From NCBI GenBank assembly GCA_030604855.1, contig JAUVVC010000001.1, forward strand, positions 30,001-62,000: 32,000 nt of DNA. The letters run 5' to 3'. Of this stretch, positions 12,648 through 31,149 are shown piece after piece. A program made the translations under genes and the position numbers. The notes below the pieces were generated by a model that saw only the letters and a program-made list of their open reading frames with translations, was not told the DNA's origin and made no database searches. Source of the DNA: Erysipelotrichaceae bacterium. Its GTDB lineage: Bacteria; Bacillota_I; Bacilli_A; Erysipelotrichales; Erysipelotrichaceae. Within the stretch, counting starts at the first letter, position 1; every line of letters begins with the position of its first letter.

Positions 12648-13127
12648 TTAACGATTTCCTAGACGGTCATCCATCATCATGATGCCGATTGGTGTTGGGA
12701 CCTTTTCTAAGCGCGTGATGATATCGACCAAAGTGGCTTCTTCTTCAACTTGCTCATCGATGAACCAATTGTAGAGGTTTGCCATTGGATAGTTCTTTTC
12801 AGCTAATGCTGCTTCATATAAAGCGTTGATGCGGGCTGTGACTTTCTTTTCATGTTCGAGTGAAAGTTTGAAGAGATCCATGAAACCTGGGAAATCCGTT
12901 GGAACAGCTGCAATTGGCTTCAAGAGAACGCGTTCATTGACTTCTTGTAAGAAATGCATCATCTTCTTACCGTGGCTGATTTCTTCTTCAGCTTGTTTAT
13001 CCATCCATTTAGCGGTACCAGGATAACCATTGTCGGCAGCCCAAGTGGACATGGATAGGTAGAGGTAGCTGCTTTCAAATTCAAAATTAATTTGATCTAA
13101 AGCTTGTTCGAGTAATTCTTTTTTCAT
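12648..13127 (-). CDS. Non-heme bacterial ferritin
   Basis: LDQINFEFESSYLYLSMSTW and AEEEISHGKK carry the ferroxidase-centre E/ExxH residues of Ftn-type ferritins. SD AAGGAGA precedes the start. Confidence 0.9.
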   Translation of the reverse strand: MKKELLEQALDQINFEFESSYLYLSMSTWAADNGYPGTAKWMDKQAEEEISHGKKMMHFLQEVNERVLLKPIAAVPTDFPGFMDLFKLSLEHEKKVTARINALYEAALAEKNYPMANLYNWFIDEQVEEEATLVDIITRLEKVPTPIGIMMMDDRLGNR

Positions 13128-15453: not shown

Positions 15454-17802
15454 ATGGAAAAAGAAATTCTATTAGAAGGCTTGGACTGTGCCAACTGTTC
15501 AGTCAAAATTGAAAAAGAAGTCAATGCCCTAGAAGGGGTAGAGGCGAACATAAATCTAGTGACAAAGACTTTGCGTCTGAAAACTACTATAAATCACGAT
15601 GAACGTGAACTTTTTGAACAGGTTAAGTCCATTGTGCATAAACATGAGCCGGATGTGGATGTGATCGATAAACACGCATCCAAAGCGATTGAAATCGAAG
15701 CGACTTTGGAAGGTTTAAGTTGTGCAAATTGTGCTGCAAAGATCGAGAAAGCGATTCAAGCTTTGGATGGATTAGACAATGTATCCATTGATTTCGTTTC
15801 AAAGAAGCTTCGTTTCACTACGATGAATGAGAAACAGATACAGCAGATTCACGCTCAAGTGGAAGGAATCGTACATACCATTGAACCGGATACGAAATAC
15901 ATCTTGAAACATGAACAGAAGTCTAGTCTTCAGCGTGCTTTCGATTTGAAACAATTGGGTAAACATCAGTTCAATCAAATCATACGCTTTGGGACAGGCA
16001 TCCTGTTCTTTGTGTCAGGGCTTTTCATCAAAGAACCACCGCTCTTGGAATTGAGTCTATTTCTTATCGCCTATGTGATTGTTGGGGGCGATATCATTCG
16101 TAAAGCTTTTCAAGGTGTGTTAAATAAACAATTCTTCAGTGAGAATTTCTTAATGACCATTGCCACAACCGGAGCGTTTATCGTTGGTGAGTATCCGGAA
16201 GGGGTAGGTGTCATGTTGTTTTACTTGGTGGGTGAGTTTTTCCAAGACTTGGCCGTTGATCATTCACGTAATTCGATTCAAGATCTCATGGATATCCGTC
16301 CGGATACAGCCAACCTTGTACAAGGAGATCGAATTCTTTCCGTTTCTGCGGAAAGTGTTCAAGTCCATGACATCATCCTAGTGCGTCCTGGTGAGAAAGT
16401 CCCTTTGGACGGAAGAATCATCGAAGGCTCCAGCAGCTTTGATACATCACATTTGACCGGTGAGTCCTTACCAAGAGATGTGACTGTAGATGATCAAGCC
16501 TTGGGTGGTTTCGTGAATCTCAGTGGAGTCATCAAAATCAAAGTATCCAAGCCCTTTGCGGAATCGACCGTTGCGAAGATTTTGGATTTGGTTCAAAACG
16601 CAAGCAGTCGTAAAGCCAAGACGGAACAATTCATCACGCGCTTTGCGATGGTTTATACGCCCATCGTTGTGTTTGGAGCACTGGCCTTGGCCTTTATTCC
16701 ACCTTTATTGATTCCAGGCGCAAGCCTTTATGATTGGTTCTATCGTGCGATGATCTTCTTGGTCATCTCATGTCCGTGTGCCTTGGTCATCTCCATACCA
16801 CTGGGTTTCTTTGGTGGTGTAGGTGGTGCTTCCAAGCGCGGAATTCTGGTAAAGGGAAGTAATTATCTCGAAGCGCTTCGTAAAGTCAAAACCATCGTCT
16901 TCGATAAAACAGGGACCTTAACCGAAGGAAAGTTCAGTGTTCATAAGATCATAGCAGAAGATGGCTATTCAGAAGATGAAATCTTAAGGGTAGCGGCGCA
17001 TGCGGAAAGTCATTCTACCCACCCGATCGCAAGTTCAATAAAGAAAGCGTATCGTGGTCGAATTGATTTGAATTTGGCTACAGAGATTAAAGAGTTAGCG
17101 GGTTTGGGTGTTACGATCCATTATGATGGAAAGATAATTCATGTTGGGAATCATCGTTTGATGGATTCCATTGGTTTACAGATTCCAAAACAAGCTGTTT
17201 TAGGGACTTTGATTCATGTGGCGATCGATCATGCATATGCGGGTTCCATATTAATCGCCGATACCATTAAAAAAGAAGCCAAACAAGCCATTACGGATCT
17301 TAAGCAAATGGGTATCCGTACGATACTCTTAAGTGGTGATTTGAAAGGCATTGCAAGCCAAGTTGCCTCAGACTTAGGAATTGATGAAGTCCACGCGGAA
17401 CTCTTACCTCAGGATAAAGTCGCTATTTTCGAACAACTCAATATGAGTAATAAAGATAAGACTGCTTTTGTCGGGGATGGCATCAACGATGCGCCAGTCT
17501 TGGCACGTGCGGATATCGGCATTGCGATGGGTGGTTTGGGATCGGATGCGGCGATTGAAGCCGCAGACATCGTCATCATGAATGATGAACTCACGCAAGT
17601 CGTCACCGCCATGAAGATTGCCAATAAGACACATACGATTGTCTACCAAAATATCGTCTTTGCTTTAGGTGTCAAGGCTATCTTCTTAGTACTGGGTGCC
17701 TTTGGTTTAGCCTCGATGTGGGAAGCCGTCTTTGCGGATACGGGTGTCGCTTTGATTGCGATTGCCAATGCGATGCGTGTCATGCGTACACGTAAACTTT
17801 AA
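15454..17802 (+). CDS. cadA: P1B-type heavy-metal (Cd/Zn/Pb-type) translocating ATPase with two N-terminal HMA domains
   Basis: Two CANC metal-binding domains (GLDCANCSVKIE, GLSCANCAAKIE), SCPCALV (CPC) in the membrane, DKTGTLT phosphorylation site, TGES, and the GDGINDAP hinge. Confidence 0.9.
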   Translation: MEKEILLEGLDCANCSVKIEKEVNALEGVEANINLVTKTLRLKTTINHDERELFEQVKSIVHKHEPDVDVIDKHASKAIEIEATLEGLSCANCAAKIEKAIQALDGLDNVSIDFVSKKLRFTTMNEKQIQQIHAQVEGIVHTIEPDTKYILKHEQKSSLQRAFDLKQLGKHQFNQIIRFGTGILFFVSGLFIKEPPLLELSLFLIAYVIVGGDIIRKAFQGVLNKQFFSENFLMTIATTGAFIVGEYPEGVGVMLFYLVGEFFQDLAVDHSRNSIQDLMDIRPDTANLVQGDRILSVSAESVQVHDIILVRPGEKVPLDGRIIEGSSSFDTSHLTGESLPRDVTVDDQALGGFVNLSGVIKIKVSKPFAESTVAKILDLVQNASSRKAKTEQFITRFAMVYTPIVVFGALALAFIPPLLIPGASLYDWFYRAMIFLVISCPCALVISIPLGFFGGVGGASKRGILVKGSNYLEALRKVKTIVFDKTGTLTEGKFSVHKIIAEDGYSEDEILRVAAHAESHSTHPIASSIKKAYRGRIDLNLATEIKELAGLGVTIHYDGKIIHVGNHRLMDSIGLQIPKQAVLGTLIHVAIDHAYAGSILIADTIKKEAKQAITDLKQMGIRTILLSGDLKGIASQVASDLGIDEVHAELLPQDKVAIFEQLNMSNKDKTAFVGDGINDAPVLARADIGIAMGGLGSDAAIEAADIVIMNDELTQVVTAMKIANKTHTIVYQNIVFALGVKAIFLVLGAFGLASMWEAVFADTGVALIAIANAMRVMRTRKL

Positions 17803-18175: not shown

Positions 18176-19018
18176 TTAGTTTGATGTATTTACGGTAACA
18201 ACTTTCCCATCAAGCTGAGCACCAGCCTCGATACTTATTGAAGTGCAAAATAAATCTCCTTTTACTACTGCAGATTTCTTCAAAACGATGCTTTCACTTG
18301 CTTTGACTTCACCATTTACTTCTCCAGAAATCTCTACTCGCTTAGCTTCCACATTGCCAAATACTTTTGTTTGATTATTAGCTTCAAAGGTTTCAATAAC
18401 AGAAATATTGCCTTTTAATTCAGATCCACTACATTTGACAGACTTCGCTTGTATGTTTCCTTCAATTATCGAACCAAAATTAACCTCAACAGTATCTTTG
18501 CAGTTAATATCACCCAGAATTTTACCGTTTACTATTAATGAAGTTTCTAATTCCATATTTCCATTCACGACCATCGTATTACTAATTACTGCAATCTCTT
18601 TTGATGCCCCGACATTACCATTTAAACTCATTTCATTTTCCTCTTCTTGTCCCTTTTGGTTAGTTTTGTTTGTTTTATTATCTGCTTTATAATGAGTAAT
18701 CGATTCCCAAACATTTTTCTTTTTGATAGTATCCTCCTTACTGTTTATGGCTGTATCTTCAACTAATTTTGTCTTGATAGGCTCATTCGTTTTAGTTTCT
18801 AAATCTGCAGAATCCAACTCAGCTGCATCATTTGATTTAAAAACAATAAATGGGAAATTATTACCTAACACAGAGATTGTTTTCTTCTCAACATTCTTTT
18901 GATTATCAACTTTCTGATTAGTAATTTCAATGTCTTCAAACTTATCTTCTACGACCTGAAGCAGATTTGATTTTCTTTGATTTTCTAAGTTTTTAGGAAG
19001 TTTTTTATACTTATTCAA
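18176..19018 (-). CDS. Bactofilin-domain (polymer-forming cytoskeletal) protein with a long K/N/E-rich N-terminal extension
   Basis: The C-terminal 140 aa form a beta-helical repeat (VVNGNMELETSLIVNGKILGDI...VEISGEVNGEVKA...VVKGDLFCTSISIEAGAQLDGKV) typical of PF04519. TTG 19018 lies 8 nt after AAAGGAG and is preferred over GTG 19042. Confidence 0.75.
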   Translation of the reverse strand: MNKYKKLPKNLENQRKSNLLQVVEDKFEDIEITNQKVDNQKNVEKKTISVLGNNFPFIVFKSNDAAELDSADLETKTNEPIKTKLVEDTAINSKEDTIKKKNVWESITHYKADNKTNKTNQKGQEEENEMSLNGNVGASKEIAVISNTMVVNGNMELETSLIVNGKILGDINCKDTVEVNFGSIIEGNIQAKSVKCSGSELKGNISVIETFEANNQTKVFGNVEAKRVEISGEVNGEVKASESIVLKKSAVVKGDLFCTSISIEAGAQLDGKVVTVNTSN

Positions 19019-19157
19019 GATAGATGCTCCTTTCAAGTTCACATTTTTCGAACTATTTGTTTGATAATCTCTGTATCTTATGGAGTTGAAATATAACCCA
19101 ACTCTTTTTAAACCTATAAGTTCTGAATTAGCTGTTCGGTAGGTTTCAACTCTTGAT

Positions 19158-22223: not shown

Positions 22224-22270
22224 TATGAAACCTTTCTTAATTATTTATTAATACGCTAGTTGATAGCAAA

Positions 22271-22360
22271 TAAAAAACACCTACTTGGGAACTGGCTGCC
22301 ATTTTAAAGGCCCTATAGTTTTGCGTCCAATGCTTTCGCACTGTTTGCCTTTTTCTTCAA
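22271..22360 (-). promoter_or_regulatory. c-di-GMP-I (GEMM-I) riboswitch candidate in the 5' leader of the GGDEF-EAL gene
   Basis: The minus-strand RNA reads GAAGAAAAAGGCAAACAGUGCGAAAGCAUUGGACGCAAAACUAUAGGGCCUUUAAAAUGGCAGCCAGUUCCCAAGUAGGUGUUUUUU. GGCAAAC, a 6-bp hairpin capped by GAAA, GGACGCAAA and AUGGCAGCCAGUU parallel the conserved blocks of Vc2 (GGCAAACCAUUCGAAAGAGUGGGACGCAAAGCC...) as I recall them. Confidence 0.75.
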
Positions 22361-22799
22361 TGTTGACAGAATATAACGAACAAATGTTTCAAATAATTAT
22401 TCAAGAAAATCAATGCAATCGGAATGTGGTTACTTTGACTATATTCAAAATACTTAATCTTCTTACATTATTTCATGACTCCTATTACATTTCAAGAAAA
22501 ATATTAGTACTTATTATCATAAAGTTGTTTATCCTTGTGAGATATGATGTTCTTCAATAAAAATATTGTTTTGCGTTAATGTTGATTTAATGCTCTCATA
22601 CTACTGGCAAATTGCTTATTGTGTTTCGTACAAATCTCATATGAAGATATACCACTGATTAGAATTTGGTGGAATTCTATTTTTTATAACATATTATTTT
22701 TGAATATGGATGCTAATAGAAATAGTTGTTTTAATTAATGCACTTAAGTACCACTAATTAATAATAAGTGCTAATATCAAATCACAAAGGGAAATATTT

Positions 22800-23579
22800 A
22801 TGGAAACTAAATTCAAAAAACTCATTCGTTTCAATCTTATCATGGGCTTCTTTCATTTGATTCAAGGCATCGCCATGTTGTTCTTGGCAACTTCTGTCAT
22901 CCAGAAAATCGGTGAATTCCAACCCAGCATCGTTCAGTTCTATCAGACCTTCAATCCAATGACACGATCACTTGAAGTCACTTCGAAAGTCTTGTTCGAT
23001 TTACCATTCGGTATCTTGGTCGCATCTTTTCTCTTGATCTCAGCGATTGCACATGGCTTGATCGTTCTAAACAAAGACCGTTATATTGCGGATCTGAAAA
23101 TCGGTCTCAATCGCTTCCGTTGGTTCGAATACGCTTTGAGCTCATCGATCATGATCGTCTTGATCGCAACCTTGTTTGGCATCTATGACATCGCAAGTTT
23201 AGCTTTGATCTTCATCGTCAATGCATCCATGAATCTATTTGGTTTGGATATGGAAGAATTGAATGCAGGCTTCACCAAAGGCAAAGTCAACTGGGGGCCC
23301 TTCATCTGGGGTTCATTGGCGGGCATCGCACCTTGGATCGCCATCTTCTTGTACATGACCGGAACCGGTAATTACGATCAAGTGCCTTGGTTCGTATGGG
23401 CAATCGTAGGTACATATTTTGTCGCCTTCAACACCTTCCCAATAAACATGATCGCTCAATACTTGAAATTGGGTAAGTGGAAAGATTACCTCTATGGTGA
23501 GCGTTTCTACATCATCCTCAGCTTGGCAGCGAAGTCCATCCTGGCTTGGCTTGTCCTCTTTGGTGCCATGCAACCTTAA
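22800..23579 (+). CDS. Heliorhodopsin
   Basis: 259-aa, 7-TM protein. NRFRWFEYALSSSIMIVLIA, VNASMNLFG and GERFYIILSLAAKSILAW closely parallel heliorhodopsin 48C12 (IFRWVEYSLSSSVMIVLIA, VNASMILFG, GERAYIVLSLVAKSALAW). Lys245, Glu110, His19 and His85 are all present. SD AAAGGGA lies 7 nt before the ATG. Confidence 0.9.
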   Translation: METKFKKLIRFNLIMGFFHLIQGIAMLFLATSVIQKIGEFQPSIVQFYQTFNPMTRSLEVTSKVLFDLPFGILVASFLLISAIAHGLIVLNKDRYIADLKIGLNRFRWFEYALSSSIMIVLIATLFGIYDIASLALIFIVNASMNLFGLDMEELNAGFTKGKVNWGPFIWGSLAGIAPWIAIFLYMTGTGNYDQVPWFVWAIVGTYFVAFNTFPINMIAQYLKLGKWKDYLYGERFYIILSLAAKSILAWLVLFGAMQP

Positions 23580-23600
23580 CGACCTGCAGGTCGTTTTTTT
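23578..23600 (+). terminator. Rho-independent terminator after the heliorhodopsin gene
   Basis: AACGACC-tgca-GGTCGTT followed by TTTTT, immediately after the stop codon. Confidence 0.8.
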
Positions 23601-23641
23601 ATGGCCTGGAATGCGCTATAATAGCGTGGTTGGAGTCCAAT

Positions 23642-25003
23642 ATGCTTGATATCAAAAAAGAGAATCGTTTCATCCTGGGAATCTTGATTCCCATCATCTT
23701 AGAAAATGTGTTATTGACCTTATCCAGTCTAGTCATCACCGGATATGTTGGGCGATTATTAATTTTGGAAATCTCCGCCCAAGGCGTGGCCAATCGCCTG
23801 TATGGGATTTATTTCTCGGTATTCAAAGGTTTGGCGATTGGTTTGATGGTGCTTGCGGCACGACACTTTGGCAGTGGACGATTGGATCGGTGTCGTATTG
23901 TTCAAGCACGTGCGATGGCAATGATTTTACCCTTATCACTTTTATCTTCACTTTTGATGTTTGTTTTTCGTACCGACTTTTTTCGGTTGATCACTCAAGA
24001 TGTTCAAATCTTGGACTTGGCATCGCGCTATTTTCAGATCTCGGTGTTGGGTTTTCCTTTTGTGGCGATCACCGCACTGAATACCGCTGCATTTCAAGCA
24101 CAGGGTAATACTCGTAGACCTTTGTATATTGCGGCATTCGGGAATTTATTCAATATCATCATCGGGTATGTATTGATTTTTGGGACGGTATGGACACCTG
24201 CTTTAGGCTTAAAAGGGGCTGCGATTTCTCTCATCAGTTCACAAATATTAAGTGCGAGTCTGGGCTTATGGGGTCTCTATAGCACGAAAATTGGATTGTT
24301 TAAGGATACCGTAAAAGTATCTGTTCAATCGATGTTCGATCGTTTTGAGAACGGACGGATCTTGGCAACAGGAGTACCGGCAGCGTTTGAGAATACCTTC
24401 TGGCAATTCGCAACCTTGATCATCTCACGTGTCATCATCGCTTATGGGACCGCACATTATGCGGCTTATCAGATGGGGCTTCAAGCAGAAGGTTTAAGTG
24501 AAATGTTGTCAGTTGGTTTCGTAACGGCATCCATCAGTTTGGCATCGATCGCGATTGGGAAGCAGGATGATGCTCTATTCAAGTTCTACTTCAAACGTTT
24601 GACGCAGTTGAGTCTAGTGATCAGTACAATCACCATGACGCTCTTGTTTTTCTTTGCGGAGAATTTAATGGGCTTATTGACGGATAAAGGCGAATTGATT
24701 CAAATCGGAACCCTGTATCTTAAAATCATGGCAGGATCTCAGATCCCTCAAAACATGTCAAAAGTCTTGAACGGCTTCATCCGTTCATCGGGTTATAAAA
24801 CCGTTCCGATGTTGGTCAGTTTCACAGGCTTATGGTTGGTTCGTGTACCTTTGAGTTTATTGGCTCAAAGTGTCCTGGGTTGGGATATCGTAACCATATG
24901 GTGGATCATCAATTTAGACCAATGGGTACGATTCTCAATCAGTTTGACCGTCTTCTTAAAAGCTAAGTTATATGATGCGATTCAAGCTCAAGCTTTGGCT
25001 TGA
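23642..25003 (+). CDS. MATE family efflux transporter
   Basis: ATG 23642 (MLDIKKENRFILGILIPIILEN) is a typical MATE N-terminus. The protein has about 12 TM segments. The upstream extension in ORF 23546 crosses the terminator and is rejected. Confidence 0.85.
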   Translation: MLDIKKENRFILGILIPIILENVLLTLSSLVITGYVGRLLILEISAQGVANRLYGIYFSVFKGLAIGLMVLAARHFGSGRLDRCRIVQARAMAMILPLSLLSSLLMFVFRTDFFRLITQDVQILDLASRYFQISVLGFPFVAITALNTAAFQAQGNTRRPLYIAAFGNLFNIIIGYVLIFGTVWTPALGLKGAAISLISSQILSASLGLWGLYSTKIGLFKDTVKVSVQSMFDRFENGRILATGVPAAFENTFWQFATLIISRVIIAYGTAHYAAYQMGLQAEGLSEMLSVGFVTASISLASIAIGKQDDALFKFYFKRLTQLSLVISTITMTLLFFFAENLMGLLTDKGELIQIGTLYLKIMAGSQIPQNMSKVLNGFIRSSGYKTVPMLVSFTGLWLVRVPLSLLAQSVLGWDIVTIWWIINLDQWVRFSISLTVFLKAKLYDAIQAQALA

Positions 25004-25876: not shown

Positions 25877-26314
25877 TTATTCCAAATCAAGAAGTTGAAT
25901 CGCATTAACACCTTTACAGTGTTTAAGATCTTCCAGTAACTGATCCAACGAAACTCGCATATCCAAGATATCCAGCATGAGAATGACCGATGCGATGTTT
26001 CGAATCGGCGTGTTTTGATTTAAGGTTAAAACGTTGGCATTGGTTCGTGCAATAAAACCCAATACTTCCGATAAGACACCTTGTTGGTGGTCTAATAGAA
26101 AGGTAAGAATTGCTTTACGCGTCATTTTATTCTCATCCGGACGAAATACCAAGTCTTTATACTTGTAATAGCTTGAGCGTGATAAGTTCAAACGTTTACA
26201 TGCCTCGCTGATGTCTTTGACCTGTCGTGTTTGAACCAACTCACGTGCTTCAATGACTTTGAGATATGTTTCTGGAATCAACTTTTGATGAATGATGAGA
26301 AATTCAGGTTTCAT
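25877..26314 (-). CDS. UPF0735 ACT domain-containing protein (PheB-like) with N-terminal HTH-like segment
   Basis: ISEACKRLNLSRSSYYKYKDLVFRP followed by an ACT fold (ILTFLLDHQQGVLSEVLGFIARTNANVLTLNQ). It parallels B. subtilis PheB (VDLSRSAFYKYRDAVFPF...) as I recall it. It overlaps thrB by 11 nt. Confidence 0.75.
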   Translation of the reverse strand: MKPEFLIIHQKLIPETYLKVIEARELVQTRQVKDISEACKRLNLSRSSYYKYKDLVFRPDENKMTRKAILTFLLDHQQGVLSEVLGFIARTNANVLTLNQNTPIRNIASVILMLDILDMRVSLDQLLEDLKHCKGVNAIQLLDLE

Positions 26315-27167
26315 AGGACCACGCCATCCCTTTCGTATCCAAATTAACGTCTAAGATCGACCATTTTGCTTGTGTTCCTTCAAGACAGCTCTTCAATAAA
26401 GATTCTTCCTCGTTTGTCACAACCATGAGACTTGGACCTGCGCCACTGAGATAGTAGGCTAAATGCTTTGATGCTAAGTTGTCTGTAATGATTTTGAAGT
26501 CTGGATGAAGATTAAGACGAACGTTTTGGTGAATGCGATCCGTGATCGCCCATGCCAAACGTTCACTGTTTCCCGTACTCAACGCATCCAGTAAAAAGGG
26601 GATTTGACTGAGATTATAGACTGCATCTTCACGTGATATTTGTGTGGGTAAGACCTTACGACTGTGTTCGGTTGAGAGTGTAAAATCTGGAACCAAGAGC
26701 TTGAAATGATATGATGCATGAACGGGATACCGAATGACTTCAACCTTTTCGAAAAGGTGTTTGGAAGCACATAGACCCCCCACGATGGCAGGGACAATGT
26801 TGTCGGGGTGACCCTCAAGTAGATTGGCAAGTTGAATCAAACGCGTACGATCCAAACTTTTTGTGTGCTCGATTAAAGCAGTCGCAACACCTGCCACAAT
26901 CAAGGCAGCACTGGATCCCAGACCTCTTGCCATGGGTATTTCAGAGTGCATCTCAACTTTAAGCGGATGAACTTGGGTTTGTTCCTGTTCGCAAGCGAAT
27001 TGATAGGCTTTTAGAAAAAGATTGTCTTCACTTTCCTCAAAGCCGATGCATTCGTTTTGCCCACTGATCGTAACGATAAAATCCGCATATCGATTGATGG
27101 CTAAGCCGAGACAGTCAAAGCCAGGACCTAGATTGGCACTGGTTGCTGGGACACGTATTCGAATCAT
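26304..27167 (-). CDS. thrB: Homoserine kinase
   Basis: IRVPATSANLGPGFDCLGLA and MARGLGSSAA (GHMP kinase motif II). It overlaps thrC by 4 nt. Confidence 0.9.
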   Translation of the reverse strand: MIRIRVPATSANLGPGFDCLGLAINRYADFIVTISGQNECIGFEESEDNLFLKAYQFACEQEQTQVHPLKVEMHSEIPMARGLGSSAALIVAGVATALIEHTKSLDRTRLIQLANLLEGHPDNIVPAIVGGLCASKHLFEKVEVIRYPVHASYHFKLLVPDFTLSTEHSRKVLPTQISREDAVYNLSQIPFLLDALSTGNSERLAWAITDRIHQNVRLNLHPDFKIITDNLASKHLAYYLSGAGPSLMVVTNEEESLLKSCLEGTQAKWSILDVNLDTKGMAWSYET

Positions 27168-28573
27168 TTCAGCTCCTTTGCTTGAGCGATAGTCAAGATT
27201 TGGGTATGGATTTCAGGGAGATCTTCAAGTGAACGTAAAGCTTTCGGAATCAGAGTTCCTGTTAGCTTTGATAATTCGATCATGGCTTTAAAGTCATCCT
27301 CTGAAGGCTGCGCTTTTAATGCATTAAGAACACTACGCGGGAACTTATACGCTGAAGCAGTCGAAAGAACGGCAAGGGCTTGGTTTGGGTATTCAATTTG
27401 ATAGCGTTCTGCTGCAGCCCATGCGACTGCTGTGTGTGGATCAAGGAGTACCTGCTCTTCATCATAAACCGTTTGAATGGTTTGGCTTGTCAGAACCTCA
27501 TCAATGCGATAAGCCTTGAATCGTGACTGAAGTTGATTTAGTAAATCAGGATCGATTTGATATGCACCTTCATGATCCAAATCATGCATATACTTTGAAA
27601 CGTGCTTATCGTCTGCTTCTAGAAAAAGTAGACGTTCTAGATTACTTGATACTAAGATATCCATGGAAGGGGATTGTGTGTGCATAAATTCTCGTCTAAG
27701 ATTGTATCGACCTTGTGTGAAGAATTCGGTTAAGACATCATTGGCATTGGAGGCGATGATCAGATGCTTGATGGGAAGTCCCATACGATAAGCACAATAG
27801 CCTGCAAAGGCATTTCCAAAATTACCACTCGGGATGGAGAAACTCAAGGCTTCGCCTTTTTGAATTCGGTGATGCTTGATCGCATCGCCATACGCTTTGA
27901 AGTAATAGGCAAGCTGTGGAATCAAGCGACCAATATTGATGGAGTTTGCTGAACCATAGTGGTGATTCTCATCATTTCGAAAGAGGTGTTTAACGACTGC
28001 TTGAGCATCATCAAAATTACCTTCGATTCCATAGACTTTGACACCTTTAGCATCGATCGTAGTCATTTGACGACGTTGGATTGAACTGATGCCCACTTGT
28101 GGATAAAAAACCGTGATGGGGAAAACAGAATCCTTAAATCCCATTAAAGCTGCGGAACCCGTGTCACCACTTGTCGCTGTTAAGATATGAGGAACAACAC
28201 GTGTTCCTGATTTGATGAAAGCGCGATGACTCAGTTCAGGTAAGACACTTAAAGCAATGTCTTTAAAGGCAGCGCTGGGACCGTGGTAGAGTTCAACGAT
28301 TTGATGTTTACGAAAGATACTGGGCACGATTTCAGGTTGCTCAAATTGAGCATAGGCTTTGTGGATAAAATCCTTGTCGATATTTAGTTCGGGAAAAACG
28401 ATGCTTAGAATTTCATAGATGATGTCTTCAAAGGGAAGATTGATCCATGTCTCCCATGAGACAAGTGGAAATTCATTGAACATCCAAAGACCACCATCGG
28501 GTGCCATGGGTTGGATCAATGCTTGCCAAGTAGTTTGTTCTAAATTTGTGTTACGTGTGCTGTAGAGTTTCAT
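27164..28573 (-). CDS. thrC: Threonine synthase (long form)
   Basis: GPSAAFKDIALS (PLP lysine), TSGDTGSAA and PSGNFGN motifs. 469 aa. Confidence 0.9.
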   Translation of the reverse strand: MKLYSTRNTNLEQTTWQALIQPMAPDGGLWMFNEFPLVSWETWINLPFEDIIYEILSIVFPELNIDKDFIHKAYAQFEQPEIVPSIFRKHQIVELYHGPSAAFKDIALSVLPELSHRAFIKSGTRVVPHILTATSGDTGSAALMGFKDSVFPITVFYPQVGISSIQRRQMTTIDAKGVKVYGIEGNFDDAQAVVKHLFRNDENHHYGSANSINIGRLIPQLAYYFKAYGDAIKHHRIQKGEALSFSIPSGNFGNAFAGYCAYRMGLPIKHLIIASNANDVLTEFFTQGRYNLRREFMHTQSPSMDILVSSNLERLLFLEADDKHVSKYMHDLDHEGAYQIDPDLLNQLQSRFKAYRIDEVLTSQTIQTVYDEEQVLLDPHTAVAWAAAERYQIEYPNQALAVLSTASAYKFPRSVLNALKAQPSEDDFKAMIELSKLTGTLIPKALRSLEDLPEIHTQILTIAQAKELK

Positions 28574-28618
28574 ATTTCACTTGTTTTTAATTATACACGA
28601 TGCTAGAATGTTTTCAAT

Positions 28619-29830
28619 ATGAAAACAGATGTATCGAAAATAGAAACAAATAAACGCTTAGGCATTGGTCTACTTGGCTATGGAACAGTGGGAAAAGGTT
28701 TAGAAACTCTCCTTGAGGCAACGGCATCAGATGCCTTCTTTATTGCTAAAATATTACGAAGAGCTACGAAAGCGAATCGTCATGACATGGTTGAAGATAT
28801 TGAATCCTTGCTTCAGGATCCTAATGTGGATATTGTCGTCGAGGTTCTTGGGGGGATAGAACCAGCCCGAACGTATATACTGGCTGCTTTGAACGCAAAG
28901 AAAGCGGTTGTTACTGCGAATAAGGCTTTGATCAATCGACACGGGGATGAATTGGATGCGTGTGCGAAAGCCAACGGTGTTGCTTTGCGTTTCAGTGCAG
29001 CGGTTGGTGGTGGCATTCCTTATCTAGCGACCTTGTTGGAAGTCAAACGTCACACCCAGATTCAAGCGATAGGGGGTATCCTCAATGGTACGAGTAATTT
29101 CATGCTCGATAAGATGGAACGTGAGCAGTGTGCCTTTGAAGAAGCTTTACGTGCAGCACAACAATTGGGTTATGCCGAAGCAGACCCCAGTGCGGATATC
29201 TTAGGCACAGATAGTTTGAATAAGATACGTTTGTCAGGTGTTGTGGCCTTTGATCGGTGGATTGAATTTGAAAGCATTCCATGTGAGGGAATTGCGTATC
29301 TACAAGCTGAGGATATTCAGTTTATTCAAAACTTGGGTTATCATATCCGACTGTTTGCGACCATGTGTCGAAGTGAGGATGGTATCCAAGCTTATGTCGA
29401 ACCTCAGCTTTTTAATGTGGAAGATGCGGAGGCATCTATATTGGCTAATCACAACATCGCTTGGTTCGTTGATTCGATGAATGAGCGTCAAGCTTTGATT
29501 GGACAAGGTGCAGGGGGATTACCAACTGCAGGTAATATTCTACGGGACTTGATGCAGATCAAAGAAAAGACAGGGGGTATGTTGCCGGAAGGACATACGA
29601 AACTTGTCGCAAATAATACCAAAGCGATTCATCCATACCTGATTCGAAGTTCAAAAACCTTGAAATCAGGCTATCTGGAAGCTTTGAGTGAAGTCAAATG
29701 GATACAAGGCAACCGTATCTATCGCATCACAAAAGCCATGGACGTATCACGTATCCATGCCCTCGTTCAGACATTGCGAGCGACAGAACCCATCTTTTTC
29801 GCTGGTATACAAACCAAGGAGACATTATGA
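28619..29830 (+). CDS. hom: Homoserine dehydrogenase
   Basis: N-terminal GLLGYGTVGKG Rossmann motif, VVTANKA, GILNGTSNFML, and AQQLGYAEADPSADILGTD. Confidence 0.9.
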   Translation: MKTDVSKIETNKRLGIGLLGYGTVGKGLETLLEATASDAFFIAKILRRATKANRHDMVEDIESLLQDPNVDIVVEVLGGIEPARTYILAALNAKKAVVTANKALINRHGDELDACAKANGVALRFSAAVGGGIPYLATLLEVKRHTQIQAIGGILNGTSNFMLDKMEREQCAFEEALRAAQQLGYAEADPSADILGTDSLNKIRLSGVVAFDRWIEFESIPCEGIAYLQAEDIQFIQNLGYHIRLFATMCRSEDGIQAYVEPQLFNVEDAEASILANHNIAWFVDSMNERQALIGQGAGGLPTAGNILRDLMQIKEKTGGMLPEGHTKLVANNTKAIHPYLIRSSKTLKSGYLEALSEVKWIQGNRIYRITKAMDVSRIHALVQTLRATEPIFFAGIQTKETL

Positions 29831-31149
29831 AAATCTGTAAATTCGGTGGGTCATCACTCGCCAATGCTAAACAATTCAAAAAAATCATAACCATAGTGGA
29901 AAGCGATCCTAAACGACGAATCGTCGTTGTTTCAGCAGTGGGTAAATCACATCCGGATCAAAACAAAATTACGGATTTACTTTATCTTCTCCATGCGCAT
30001 CTTTTGTATGGGGTGGATTATCAAGCACTCCTGAATGAAATCATTGAGCGTTATCGCTCAATTCAATTGGATCTAGGTTTAAAGTTCGATGTACAAGCGT
30101 TTTTTGATCGTCTTAAAATGGATTTGAGCCCAAAAACAGAACGTGATGCCTTGGTTTCAATCGGTGAAAAACTCAGTGCCATCTTGTGTGCGGAGTACTT
30201 GAACTGGCCAATGATTGATGCGAAGGATGCCATCGTTCTTACAAGTGATGGCACAGTAGATCTTGAACGCTCGACACAGAAACTCAATACGCTTTTTCAA
30301 CAGTATCCTCATTTTGTATTGCCTGGTTTTTATGGGGCTTTACCCAATGGTCGTATCAAGCTTATGAAACGAGGGGGCTCGGACATTACCGGTTCGATTG
30401 TCGCGGCAGCGTTGCATGCGGAAATCTATGAGAACTGGACCGATGTCAGCGGCATCATGATGGCGGACCCTAGAATCGTCCCTGAAGCAAAACCGATTCC
30501 CCAACTGACTTATGGTGAGCTCCGTGAGTTGACATTCATGGGCGCTTCGATTTTGCATGAGGAATCCATTCAAGCGGTCAAACATCTCAACATTCCACTT
30601 AATATTCGCAATACAAATAAACCCGAAGAACTGGGTACTTTGATTCGCAATGATATCATCGATGATGATCAAGCTGAAGGTTTCATAACGGGCATCACTG
30701 GCCTCAAAGACTTTGCGGTCGTAACCGTGCATAAAGAACAAATCGCACGTCACCCACAGGTGTTACGTCAGATTCTAGAGAGCTTTGAACGACATGATTT
30801 GTTGATTGAACACATGACCAAAGGCATCGACAGTTTGAGTCTGACCGTTAAGGTAGAAGCTCTTAAAGAGCGACAATTCGATCTCTTTGCGGATCTCAAA
30901 CAGAAATGTTCGATTGATAAACTAACCTTTGAAGATGATTTGGCCTTAATTGCGGTTGTTGGTCGCAACATGAAAGAAAAGCCAGGCATATCTGGCCAAC
31001 TCTTCAGTGCACTGGGGGCAAAGAACATCAATATTCGTTTGATCGCTCAAGGTACCGATGAGATCAGCATCATCGTGGGTGTCGCCAATGCGGATTTTGA
31101 GTTGACGATTCAAACTCTATACGAACACTTCATTCGTAAGAATGGTTAA
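29827..31149 (+). CDS. Aspartate kinase (monofunctional)
   Basis: ATG 29827 overlaps the hom stop (ATGA). It has the MKICKFGGSSLAN kinase N-terminus, TDVSGIMMADPR, and two C-terminal ACT-like repeats (LIAVVGRNM, ISIIVGV). Confidence 0.9.
   Translation: MKICKFGGSSLANAKQFKKIITIVESDPKRRIVVVSAVGKSHPDQNKITDLLYLLHAHLLYGVDYQALLNEIIERYRSIQLDLGLKFDVQAFFDRLKMDLSPKTERDALVSIGEKLSAILCAEYLNWPMIDAKDAIVLTSDGTVDLERSTQKLNTLFQQYPHFVLPGFYGALPNGRIKLMKRGGSDITGSIVAAALHAEIYENWTDVSGIMMADPRIVPEAKPIPQLTYGELRELTFMGASILHEESIQAVKHLNIPLNIRNTNKPEELGTLIRNDIIDDDQAEGFITGITGLKDFAVVTVHKEQIARHPQVLRQILESFERHDLLIEHMTKGIDSLSLTVKVEALKERQFDLFADLKQKCSIDKLTFEDDLALIAVVGRNMKEKPGISGQLFSALGAKNINIRLIAQGTDEISIIVGVANADFELTIQTLYEHFIRKNG

Follow-up and report, generated by a model that had tools for sequence, protein, structure and literature searches.

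Riboswitches that sense cyclic di-GMP (c-di-GMP) through the GEMM-I aptamer are among the commonest classes and are found by routine Rfam scans, and a further riboswitch call of this kind therefore adds little in itself. GGDEF and PAS genes are listed among the genes associated with GEMM (PMC1950547), an association known since 2007. The element described here lies in a 32,000-nucleotide stretch of contig JAUVVC010000001.1 (the window, at its full length) from an uncultured Erysipelotrichaceae lineage, where it precedes, on the minus strand, the gene for a 1021-residue PAS-GGDEF-EAL-hemerythrin protein. By homology, it is a genuine riboswitch of the c-di-GMP-I (GEMM-I) class and forms part of the 5′ leader of a probable two-gene operon. 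The identity and fold of the aptamer, its canonical G20/A47/C92 pocket, its conservation before this gene family and the presence of a U-tract at fixed distance are established at the level of sequence comparison. Beyond these observations, termination at the U-tract is proposed, with the closing helix of the aptamer as the terminator stem.

Several described systems resemble this locus in part. The Vc2 aptamer of the Vibrio cholerae tfoY leader (3IRW, 3MXH) is a three-helix junction with a GAAA tetraloop, a G20/A47/C92 pocket and a C44/G83 pair, all of which recur in the window. Ligand-driven formation of P1 is the regulatory event in Vc2 (PMC11705072), with an OFF outcome, and the same is proposed for the window. 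Vc2 has a long P3 with the canonical tetraloop receptor and exerts translational control, whereas in the window P3 is reduced to an 8-nt loop, P1 is directly adjoined by a U-tract some 50 nt 5′ of the start codon, and the switch would act on transcription. Cd1, from the flgB leader of Clostridioides difficile, is a GEMM-I transcriptional OFF switch of a Firmicute with little canonical P1 by the pocket, and is in this respect like the window, for which an OFF switch is also proposed. Cd1 is reported to have no P1 helix and to carry a downstream expression platform, whereas the window has no second hairpin. The Cd1 platform is a separate terminator. The GEMM-Ib (3′,3′-cGAMP) aptamers of Geobacter, which respond to cyclic GMP-AMP (cGAMP), and the bispecific A20 variants of C. 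beijerinckii (Cbe 1-2) have the same fold, but A at position 20 where the window has G. The related family RF03167 (c-di-GMP-I-GGC) is like the window in its short P3, the A-rich P3 loop of its consensus and its annotated outer P1, and differs by a G at the A47 equivalent. Finally, in the HMP-PP (thiS) riboswitch the aptamer and an intrinsic terminator form one unit and the decision falls on the U-run (PMC6478431), as is proposed for the window; in HMP-PP a strong terminator is suppressed by the ligand (ON), whereas in the window a weak stem would be completed by it (OFF).

Identity of the aptamer and its ligand pocket

The full window was scanned with the covariance models of the 4227 families of Rfam 15. 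The sole match at gathering level was to RF01051 (c-di-GMP-I/GEMM-I; gathering score 35 bits), which aligned with positions 22359-22284 of the minus strand over model positions 1-87 with a score of 64.5 bits (E 1.3e-10). An initial annotation, made by a model from the letters alone, had placed a GEMM-I riboswitch at 22271-22360 after recognizing the conserved blocks in order, and the full-length match bears out this assignment. All of the blocks were found on the minus strand where they had been located. The patch is indeed richer in GC (0.42) than the surrounding AT-rich spacer (0.24-0.33), and the antisense open reading frame (ORF) 22285-22560, which exists mechanically, was correctly set aside as spurious: it has no Pfam match, and the underlying sequence has diverged in distant orthologous leaders. 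Two details required adjustment. The element does lie upstream of a c-di-GMP gene on the same strand, but the distance from the 3′ end of the aptamer to the ATG (22223) is 60 nt and not the approximately 50 nt first given; likewise, the location of the element was right, but the functional unit begins at about 22364, a few bases 5′ of the range then assigned to it.

In a more permissive scan, RF03167 won the clan competition with 56 bits but fell short of the family threshold (59). At the A47 equivalent the window has A (GACGC-A-AA) and the RF03167 consensus has G (GACGC-G-AA). Membership of RF03167 was therefore rejected and the window was assigned to canonical RF01051. Every sequence-level feature that defines RF01051 was found; the tetraloop receptor, which is usual but not universal in the class, is absent. 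The element lies in a 5′ regulatory position, on the same strand as and before the PAS-GGDEF-EAL gene, and is almost certainly a GEMM-I aptamer.

Residue numbers were set by matching the Rfam alignment to the residue-level statements in PMC11705072 and PMC6140456. The anchors were A33 of the GAAA tetraloop, the contact of A25 with G42, the inter-helix pair C44-G83, G21/G45 at the base of the helix, and C92, the second residue 3′ of P3. The Vc2-equivalent positions in the window were G20 = 22349, C44 = 22325, A47 = 22322, G83 = 22296 and C92 = 22288. The first hairpin, as defined for GEMM (PMC1950547), was present with its 2-bp and 6-bp stems, internal loop, GNRA tetraloop and covariation, as were the AAA linker (GC-AAA-ACU...) and the AG-bulged second hairpin (GGC-AG-CC). 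A pair next to the ligand pocket, G22355-C22287, was assigned from its counterpart in the annotated P1 of RF03167. The CC at C92/C93 was invariant in 10/10 related leaders, while the preceding base varied between C, G and A. The roles of G20, A47 and C92 in ligand binding have been described, and A replaces G20 in relatives that sense cGAMP or are bispecific (PMC6140456). In the Rfam alignment this position is G22349, and c-di-GMP is therefore the expected ligand, consistent with the c-di-GMP-type rather than cGAMP-type specificity implied by the initial annotation.

A scan of genome collections yielded a single close relative, the record of an uncultured Erysipelotrichaceae metagenome-assembled genome with 95% protein identity; the comparison was widened through protein homologues and their contigs. 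A GEMM-I aptamer was found in the same position before orthologues at 95, 87, 85, 61, 55, 54, 53 and 48% identity, and also before a PAS-GGDEF-EAL paralogue (locus L133) at 39% identity, with RF01051 scores of 54.4-65 bits. None was found before three longer homologues (1413-1576 aa). In the alignment of the 8 orthologous leaders, 98.4% of cells were paired and compensatory changes were present in 4 P2 pairs.

The specificity position was not uniform among these leaders. G20 was kept in the window and six other relatives, and A was present at this position in L127 (1658-1733, UAGCAAAC), L128 (802-877, GAGCAAAU) and L133 (1311-1384, UAGCAAAC), which share it with the GEMM-Ib and bispecific variants. 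It is A20 that allows both Vc2 G20A and a natural aptamer from C. beijerinckii to recognize cGAMP as well as c-di-GMP (PMC6140456). Judged by alignment, the A20 leaders bear the mark of GEMM-I variants that sense cGAMP or both messengers, and the G/A polymorphism among orthologous leaders would offer a natural series for shifts in second-messenger specificity.

A tandem pair of GEMM-I aptamers was observed at an unrelated locus (L014:1200-1560, minus strand). The first has G20 and is followed by U6GU6; the second has A20 (AAUAGCAAAC) and a tail that includes a Shine-Dalgarno (SD) sequence, GGGAG, immediately 5′ of the start codon (AUG) for a 267-aa secreted protein resembling transglutaminases. 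This locus, with its U-run just after the aptamer, was considered as a guide to switch direction and set aside, since the tandem arrangement is uninformative.

The short form of P3

In the Rfam alignment, 13 consensus positions of P3 are replaced by 2 in the window. The distal helix of the tetraloop receptor is absent and an 8-nt loop, UUUAAAAU, stands in its place. The 11-nt tetraloop receptor is accordingly not found in the window, but this is a non-defining feature: a receptor paired with the GAAA tetraloop is usual, occurring in about 50% of members, and not universal (PMC1950547).

To place this form, metagenome contigs were searched with the pattern GGCAAA-N6-GAAA-N6-GACGCAAA-N{14,24}-CAGCC, which leaves the P3 loop free and was matched at no fewer than 120 loci (at least 120). 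Among the matches listed, 105/127 had the exact 21-nt span of the window, and the consensus of the short P3 was GCUAYAGGGNC-UKUAAAAU-GN′CAGCC. In a gapless alignment of 70 distinct members of this subclass, 97.8% of cells were paired, compared with 84.9% in shuffles, and 119 cells had changed on both sides. Compensatory changes were present in all 6 pairs of the P2 stem, the P3 helices were 98.6-99.4% paired, and the distal P3 pair showed two-sided changes in 11/70 sequences. The 8-nt loop U(G/U)UAAAAU was nearly invariant across the subclass (L003-L121, from metagenomes that are mostly of human gut but also environmental).

The initial annotation had described the distal part of P3 as unusually short. 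The shortness is real, but it is no oddity of this copy, which belongs to a widespread subclass; on this comparative evidence the short P3 is a common sub-architecture and not a defect. A plausible role for the conserved loop is that it may provide a substitute docking site for the GAAA tetraloop. The 2007 description of GEMM noted that some RNAs "could be novel tetraloop receptors" (PMC1950547). An alternative role for the loop, in which its CCUUU would act as an anti-SD sequence against AAAGG, was rejected because the subclass mostly reads CCUGU and stands before unrelated genes; conservation of the loop before unrelated genes indicates that it is related to the aptamer.

The members of the subclass share the P3 architecture and the 21-nt span of the window but differ in what follows. 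Most continue as AGYUGCA into a strong GC-rich terminator, or have an SD sequence in the tail, whereas the window and its relatives read AGUUCCCAAGUARRUG and a U-run after P3.

The closing helix, the U-tract and the direction of control

The conserved block in the leader alignment extended from AACAUUGAAGAAAAAG through the aptamer to CCCAAGUARRUG and 5-8 U residues. Sequence 5′ of AACAUU was unalignable among diverged orthologues, and the 35-50 nt after the U-run were unconserved up to the GAAAGG of the ribosome-binding site (RBS). The U-run started 16 nt after CAGCC in the window and in 8/8 orthologous leaders. Unconstrained folding of the 8 leaders with RNAalifold returned P2, P3 and a closing helix, AACAUU/RRUGUU, that ends inside the U-run, with no further pairing downstream of it. 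The two purines before UG were GG, GA, AG or AA by lineage and were always opposite UU, and substitutions in the closing helix were of the type G-U to A-U only. In a direct reading of the alignments, 10/10 leaders shared the CC and a G located six bases 5′ of position 20. On these alignments, P1 can be drawn as a single imperfect helix extending between the ligand pocket and the U-tract.

In the paralogue L133 the closing helix, AGAAC/GUUCU, is unrelated in sequence, with a predicted energy of -7.0 kcal/mol that was matched by 0/500 shuffles. Its inner helix can be drawn in the register AGGU/ACCU or GGUG/CUUC, and the closing helix is followed directly by UUUUAUUU. A promoter-like sequence, TTGACT-17-TATTCT, would put the start of the transcript at the closing helix.

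No other terminator or SD-sequestering helix was present or conserved according to the terminator scan, folding, the leader alignment and the consensus fold. Ordinary terminators elsewhere in the window, one of them directly after the heliorhodopsin gene, have 7-15 bp with 3-6 GC pairs, and by comparison with these the weak candidate terminator at the closing helix looks conditional. The fixed position of the U-run against a helix, with nothing else conserved before the RBS, points to transcription termination. Since the 5′ flank is the sole conserved partner of the strand beside the U-run, the predicted terminator stem is P1.

The proposed mechanism would control the operon by transcription termination at the U-tract 22268-22277. 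The terminator stem would be the aptamer's own P1 (22364-22355 with 22287-22276), and the entire aptamer, closed by P1, would serve as the terminator hairpin. By itself P1 is presumed too weak to close the three-way junction. Binding of c-di-GMP in the pocket would link the two strands through G20 (5′) and C92 (3′); were the pocket to fill during the pause at the U-tract, P1 would zip into the hybrid and the transcript would be released. About 12 nt are held inside RNA polymerase (PMC6478431), from which we infer that C92 (22288) would already be exposed with the polymerase on U22277-22272. High c-di-GMP would thus turn the operon OFF, and a separate antiterminator would not be needed. An OFF switch on a phosphodiesterase would produce positive feedback, a latch rather than homeostasis. 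The weak closing helix fused to a U-tract is a compact candidate for a ligand-completed terminator and, if this is true, a simple system for a minimal expression platform; under the OFF model, the platform would count as a new variant.

Completion of P1 by the ligand as the terminating event goes beyond the conserved U-run beside P1, and is given a little less than an even chance. Much the same tentative standing is given to the explanation as a whole, comprising a GEMM-I riboswitch, a phosphodiesterase/bactofilin operon, P1 as terminator and the OFF direction. More doubtful is the combined proposal of a direct transcriptional OFF switch without separate terminator or antiterminator and of a drift, suggested by G/A20 among the orthologues, between c-di-GMP-only and bispecific or cGAMP sensing.

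Several observations weigh against the ligand-completed terminator. The outer closing duplex of the window has a predicted energy of -1.9 kcal/mol, an equally good adjacent duplex was obtained with 375/500 shuffled flanks, and the predicted pairing probability of the window duplex without ligand was about 0.2. The helix is backed by conservation and one-sided changes, with L133 as the single two-sided change. As the energy in the window is too weak, the case for the closing helix rests on conservation, the one-sided substitutions and one paralogue. A simple terminator scan does not call the closing helix and U-run (U6AUUU). In L127 and L133 the closing helix is predicted without ligand (P ~0.9), which fits a default-terminating design equally well. 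A ligand-stabilized terminator is also without validated precedent, and a 2024 review regards it as possible in principle but kinetically unlikely (PMC10907184). Lastly, an OFF switch on a phosphodiesterase is less intuitive than negative feedback.

The main rival uses the same parts with the opposite sign. The closing helix and U-run would terminate by default, and the ligand would remodel the top of P1, for example by freeing C92/C93, and so weaken the helix and turn the gene ON. The ligand-free closing helices of L127 and L133 suit this reading, the AGGU/ACCU register of L133 without ligand would bury C92, and the HMP-PP riboswitch demonstrates that a terminator-embedded aptamer can work (PMC6478431); homeostasis would follow for a phosphodiesterase. 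However, no comparable C92-burying register without ligand is evident in the window group, the length of the linkers allows the outer helix and the bound pocket to exist together, and in Vc2 the ligand promotes P1 and does not oppose it (PMC11705072). Default termination relieved by ligand is considered unlikely. Post-transcriptional action, judged rather unlikely, would have the U-run serve as single-stranded, AU-rich sequence recognized by a nuclease or an RNA-binding protein, or pair weakly with the purine-rich RBS. Indeed, UUUUUU can pair with the AAGAAA of the RBS region, and as a terminator stem the closing helix would be very weak. Against this, no pairing of the U-run or aptamer with the RBS is conserved in the consensus fold, the RBS lies some 35-50 nt past the U-run across unconserved sequence, and intrinsic terminators are typified by a U-run that abuts a helix at fixed distance.

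An ON switch of a different construction had been put forward in the initial annotation. Without ligand, CUAUAGGG in the 5′ strand of P3 would pair with CCCAAGUAG to form a weak terminator; ligand binding would lock P3 and permit read-through, giving c-di-GMP homeostasis. This hairpin is near-optimal in the window (-15.4 kcal/mol, against -15.7 to -16.0 kcal/mol for the aptamer fold), terminators that compete with the second hairpin are the commonest GEMM design (78/322; PMC1950547), and negative feedback on a phosphodiesterase is biologically attractive. However, among the 8 orthologous leaders its outer C-G pair was lost in 4/8, its U-G pair in 3/8 and its G-C pair in 1/8, with zero compensation. 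The hairpin also contains an internal mismatch and leaves 3 nt between its end and the U-run, and the classic GEMM terminator engages the 3′ side of the second hairpin and not the 5′ side (PMC1950547). The competing terminator was therefore abandoned, and with it the ON direction and the homeostasis loop, which had rested on this unconserved hairpin; the conserved layout is more naturally OFF, and the earlier reading is now very unlikely. Least probable of all, and extremely so, is that the element is a relic which resembles an aptamer but neither binds ligand nor regulates: the score is full-length, the pocket is intact, changes are compensatory, and the element persists in diverged flanks before homologues of as little as 39% identity.

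Other candidate structures were tried and rejected. The minimum free energy hairpin 3′ of the aptamer (AGUAGGUG/UAUUUGCU and AGUU/AACU) is disrupted by substitutions in L001, the relative at 95% identity, and does not appear in the consensus fold. The classic GEMM ON platform is illustrated by L082; in the window, the terminator scan and folding disclosed no Weinberg-type terminator overlapping the 3′ side of P3, and the sole candidate competing with the P3 3′ strand, CA(G)CC/GGUG, is lost where orthologues read AAUG. Pairing of the tail with the P2 3′ strand (CAUUGG) works in 7/8 leaders and fails in L128, which has a different P2 sequence. An anti-aptamer pairing of AAAGGC in the 5′ flank with GCCUUU in P3 is lost in L127 and L128. 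A leader peptide beginning at the RUG before the U-run was likewise dismissed: it has no SD sequence, its frames of 3-15 codons are unconserved, and L133 has no start codon there.

The L133 leader contains further structure beyond its aptamer. At L133:1385-1500, another U-run (GGUUUUUUC) and a small stem-loop, GGGAAUA...UAUUUCC, are followed by UUUUUG, with the start codon about 100 nt downstream. These may form a second attenuator.

The regulated genes and their surroundings

In an alignment with the solved structures of MucR and MorA, the EAL signatures of the regulated gene product were intact (EALLRW, EVTES, DDFGTGYSS, KIDRS, EGVET and QGYLFSKP). The GGDEF half was degenerate, with AGDEF at the signature, FG where MucR and MorA have FK, and GY..AD in place of GH..GD. 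An intact EAL domain beside a degenerate GGDEF domain makes phosphodiesterase the likelier activity compared with that of the cyclase half, and the product is most likely a phosphodiesterase, in agreement with the initial annotation of a c-di-GMP-metabolizing, phosphodiesterase-like protein.

The gene is followed after a 116-nt gap by a bactofilin gene on the same strand. No terminator was found in this gap, and the bactofilin gene keeps its position in most homologous loci, including two that have no riboswitch (L131 and L132). The absence of a terminator from the gap and the kept synteny make it likely that the two genes form an operon and are co-transcribed, and this arrangement suggests that they are a conserved functional pair. 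The riboswitch would thereby place a multi-sensor phosphodiesterase (PAS, hemerythrin and GAF domains) and a bactofilin under c-di-GMP feedback in this lineage. The features of the leader and operon are listed in Table 1.

Table 1. Features of the riboswitch leader and the genes that follow it, in window coordinates; P1, P2 and P3 are named as in the text.
Feature	Position	Strand	Basis or remark
P1 closing helix, 5′ strand AACAUUGAAG	22355-22364	-	AACAUU (22364-22359) pairs with GGUGUU (22281-22276)
A-rich junction AAAAA, P1 to position 20	22350-22354	-	Fits family consensus aaAAa (Rfam alignments)
G20 equivalent, specificity position	22349	-	Contacts one c-di-GMP guanine; Rfam alignment and literature numbering
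Block GGCAAAC	22349-22343	-	Sequence
P2 hairpin (Rfam P1)	22323-22348	-	GC/GC base, AAA/GAC internal loop, 6-bp CAGUGC/GCAUUG, GAAA tetraloop 22337-22334
CAGUGC-GAAA-GCAUUG	22343-22328	-	Sequence
GGACGC	22328-22323	-	Sequence; C22325 = C44
Linker A residues	22321-22322	-	A22322 = A47, intercalates between ligand bases (Rfam alignment)
P3 hairpin (Rfam P2), short form	22290-22320	-	AACU-AUA-GGGCC, 8-nt loop UUUAAAAU, GGC-AG-CC-AGUU
P3 5′ segment AACUAUAGGGCC	22320-22309	-	Sequence
P3 loop UUUAAAAU, 8 nt	22308-22301	-	Sequence
P3 3′ segment GGCAGCCAGUU	22300-22290	-	Sequence; G22296 = G83
CCC	22287-22289	-	C22288 = C92, Watson-Crick with second ligand guanine; C22287 = C93, opens P1
CCCAAGUAG	22289-22281	-	Sequence after P3
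GUGUUUUUU	22280-22272	-	Sequence
P1 3′ strand CAAGUAGGUGUU	22276-22287	-	Runs into U-run; leader alignment, pair counts, RNAalifold
U-tract UUUUUUAUUU, proposed termination point	22268-22277	-	Conserved U-run at fixed distance
Unconserved spacer, U-tract to RBS	22239-22267	-	No conserved pairing predicted
Ribosome-binding site AAGAAAGG	22231-22238	-	Sequence; GAAAGG kept in orthologues
Regulated gene, 1021 aa	19158-22223	-	PAS_3, PAS_9, GGDEF (AGDEF, degenerate), EAL (intact), hemerythrin, GAF; Pfam
Bactofilin gene	18176-19042	-	Pfam; likelier true start TTG at 19018, after GAAAGGAG

A terminator-like hairpin with a U-run was observed at about 18005-17980, near the bactofilin gene. On the other side of the leader, a heliorhodopsin gene (PF18761, E 4e-90) at 22800-23579 on the plus strand is divergent from the riboswitch operon across a 576-nt spacer, and the same arrangement was found in L122. 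The canonical terminator of the heliorhodopsin gene (23578-23595) lies inside the mechanically called start region of the MatE ORF 23546-25003. Within the divergent spacer, positions 22420-22800 are about 85% identical to L001, with a 32-nt insertion/deletion and a diverged block. No RNA family of Rfam was matched in 22420-22800; a DapZ match at 22714-22795 was attributed to chance (21.5 bits against a threshold of 56, E 0.3). A promoter-like sequence, TTGAAA-17-AATAAT with an upstream TG, is present at 22495-22467 on the minus strand.

Farther from the riboswitch, a threonine-pathway cluster occupies 26304-31149 and comprises a GHMP (homoserine-type) kinase, a threonine synthase, a homoserine dehydrogenase and an ACT-domain aspartokinase. 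The window also carries a ferritin-like gene (12648-13127) and a heavy-metal P-type ATPase gene (15454-17802).

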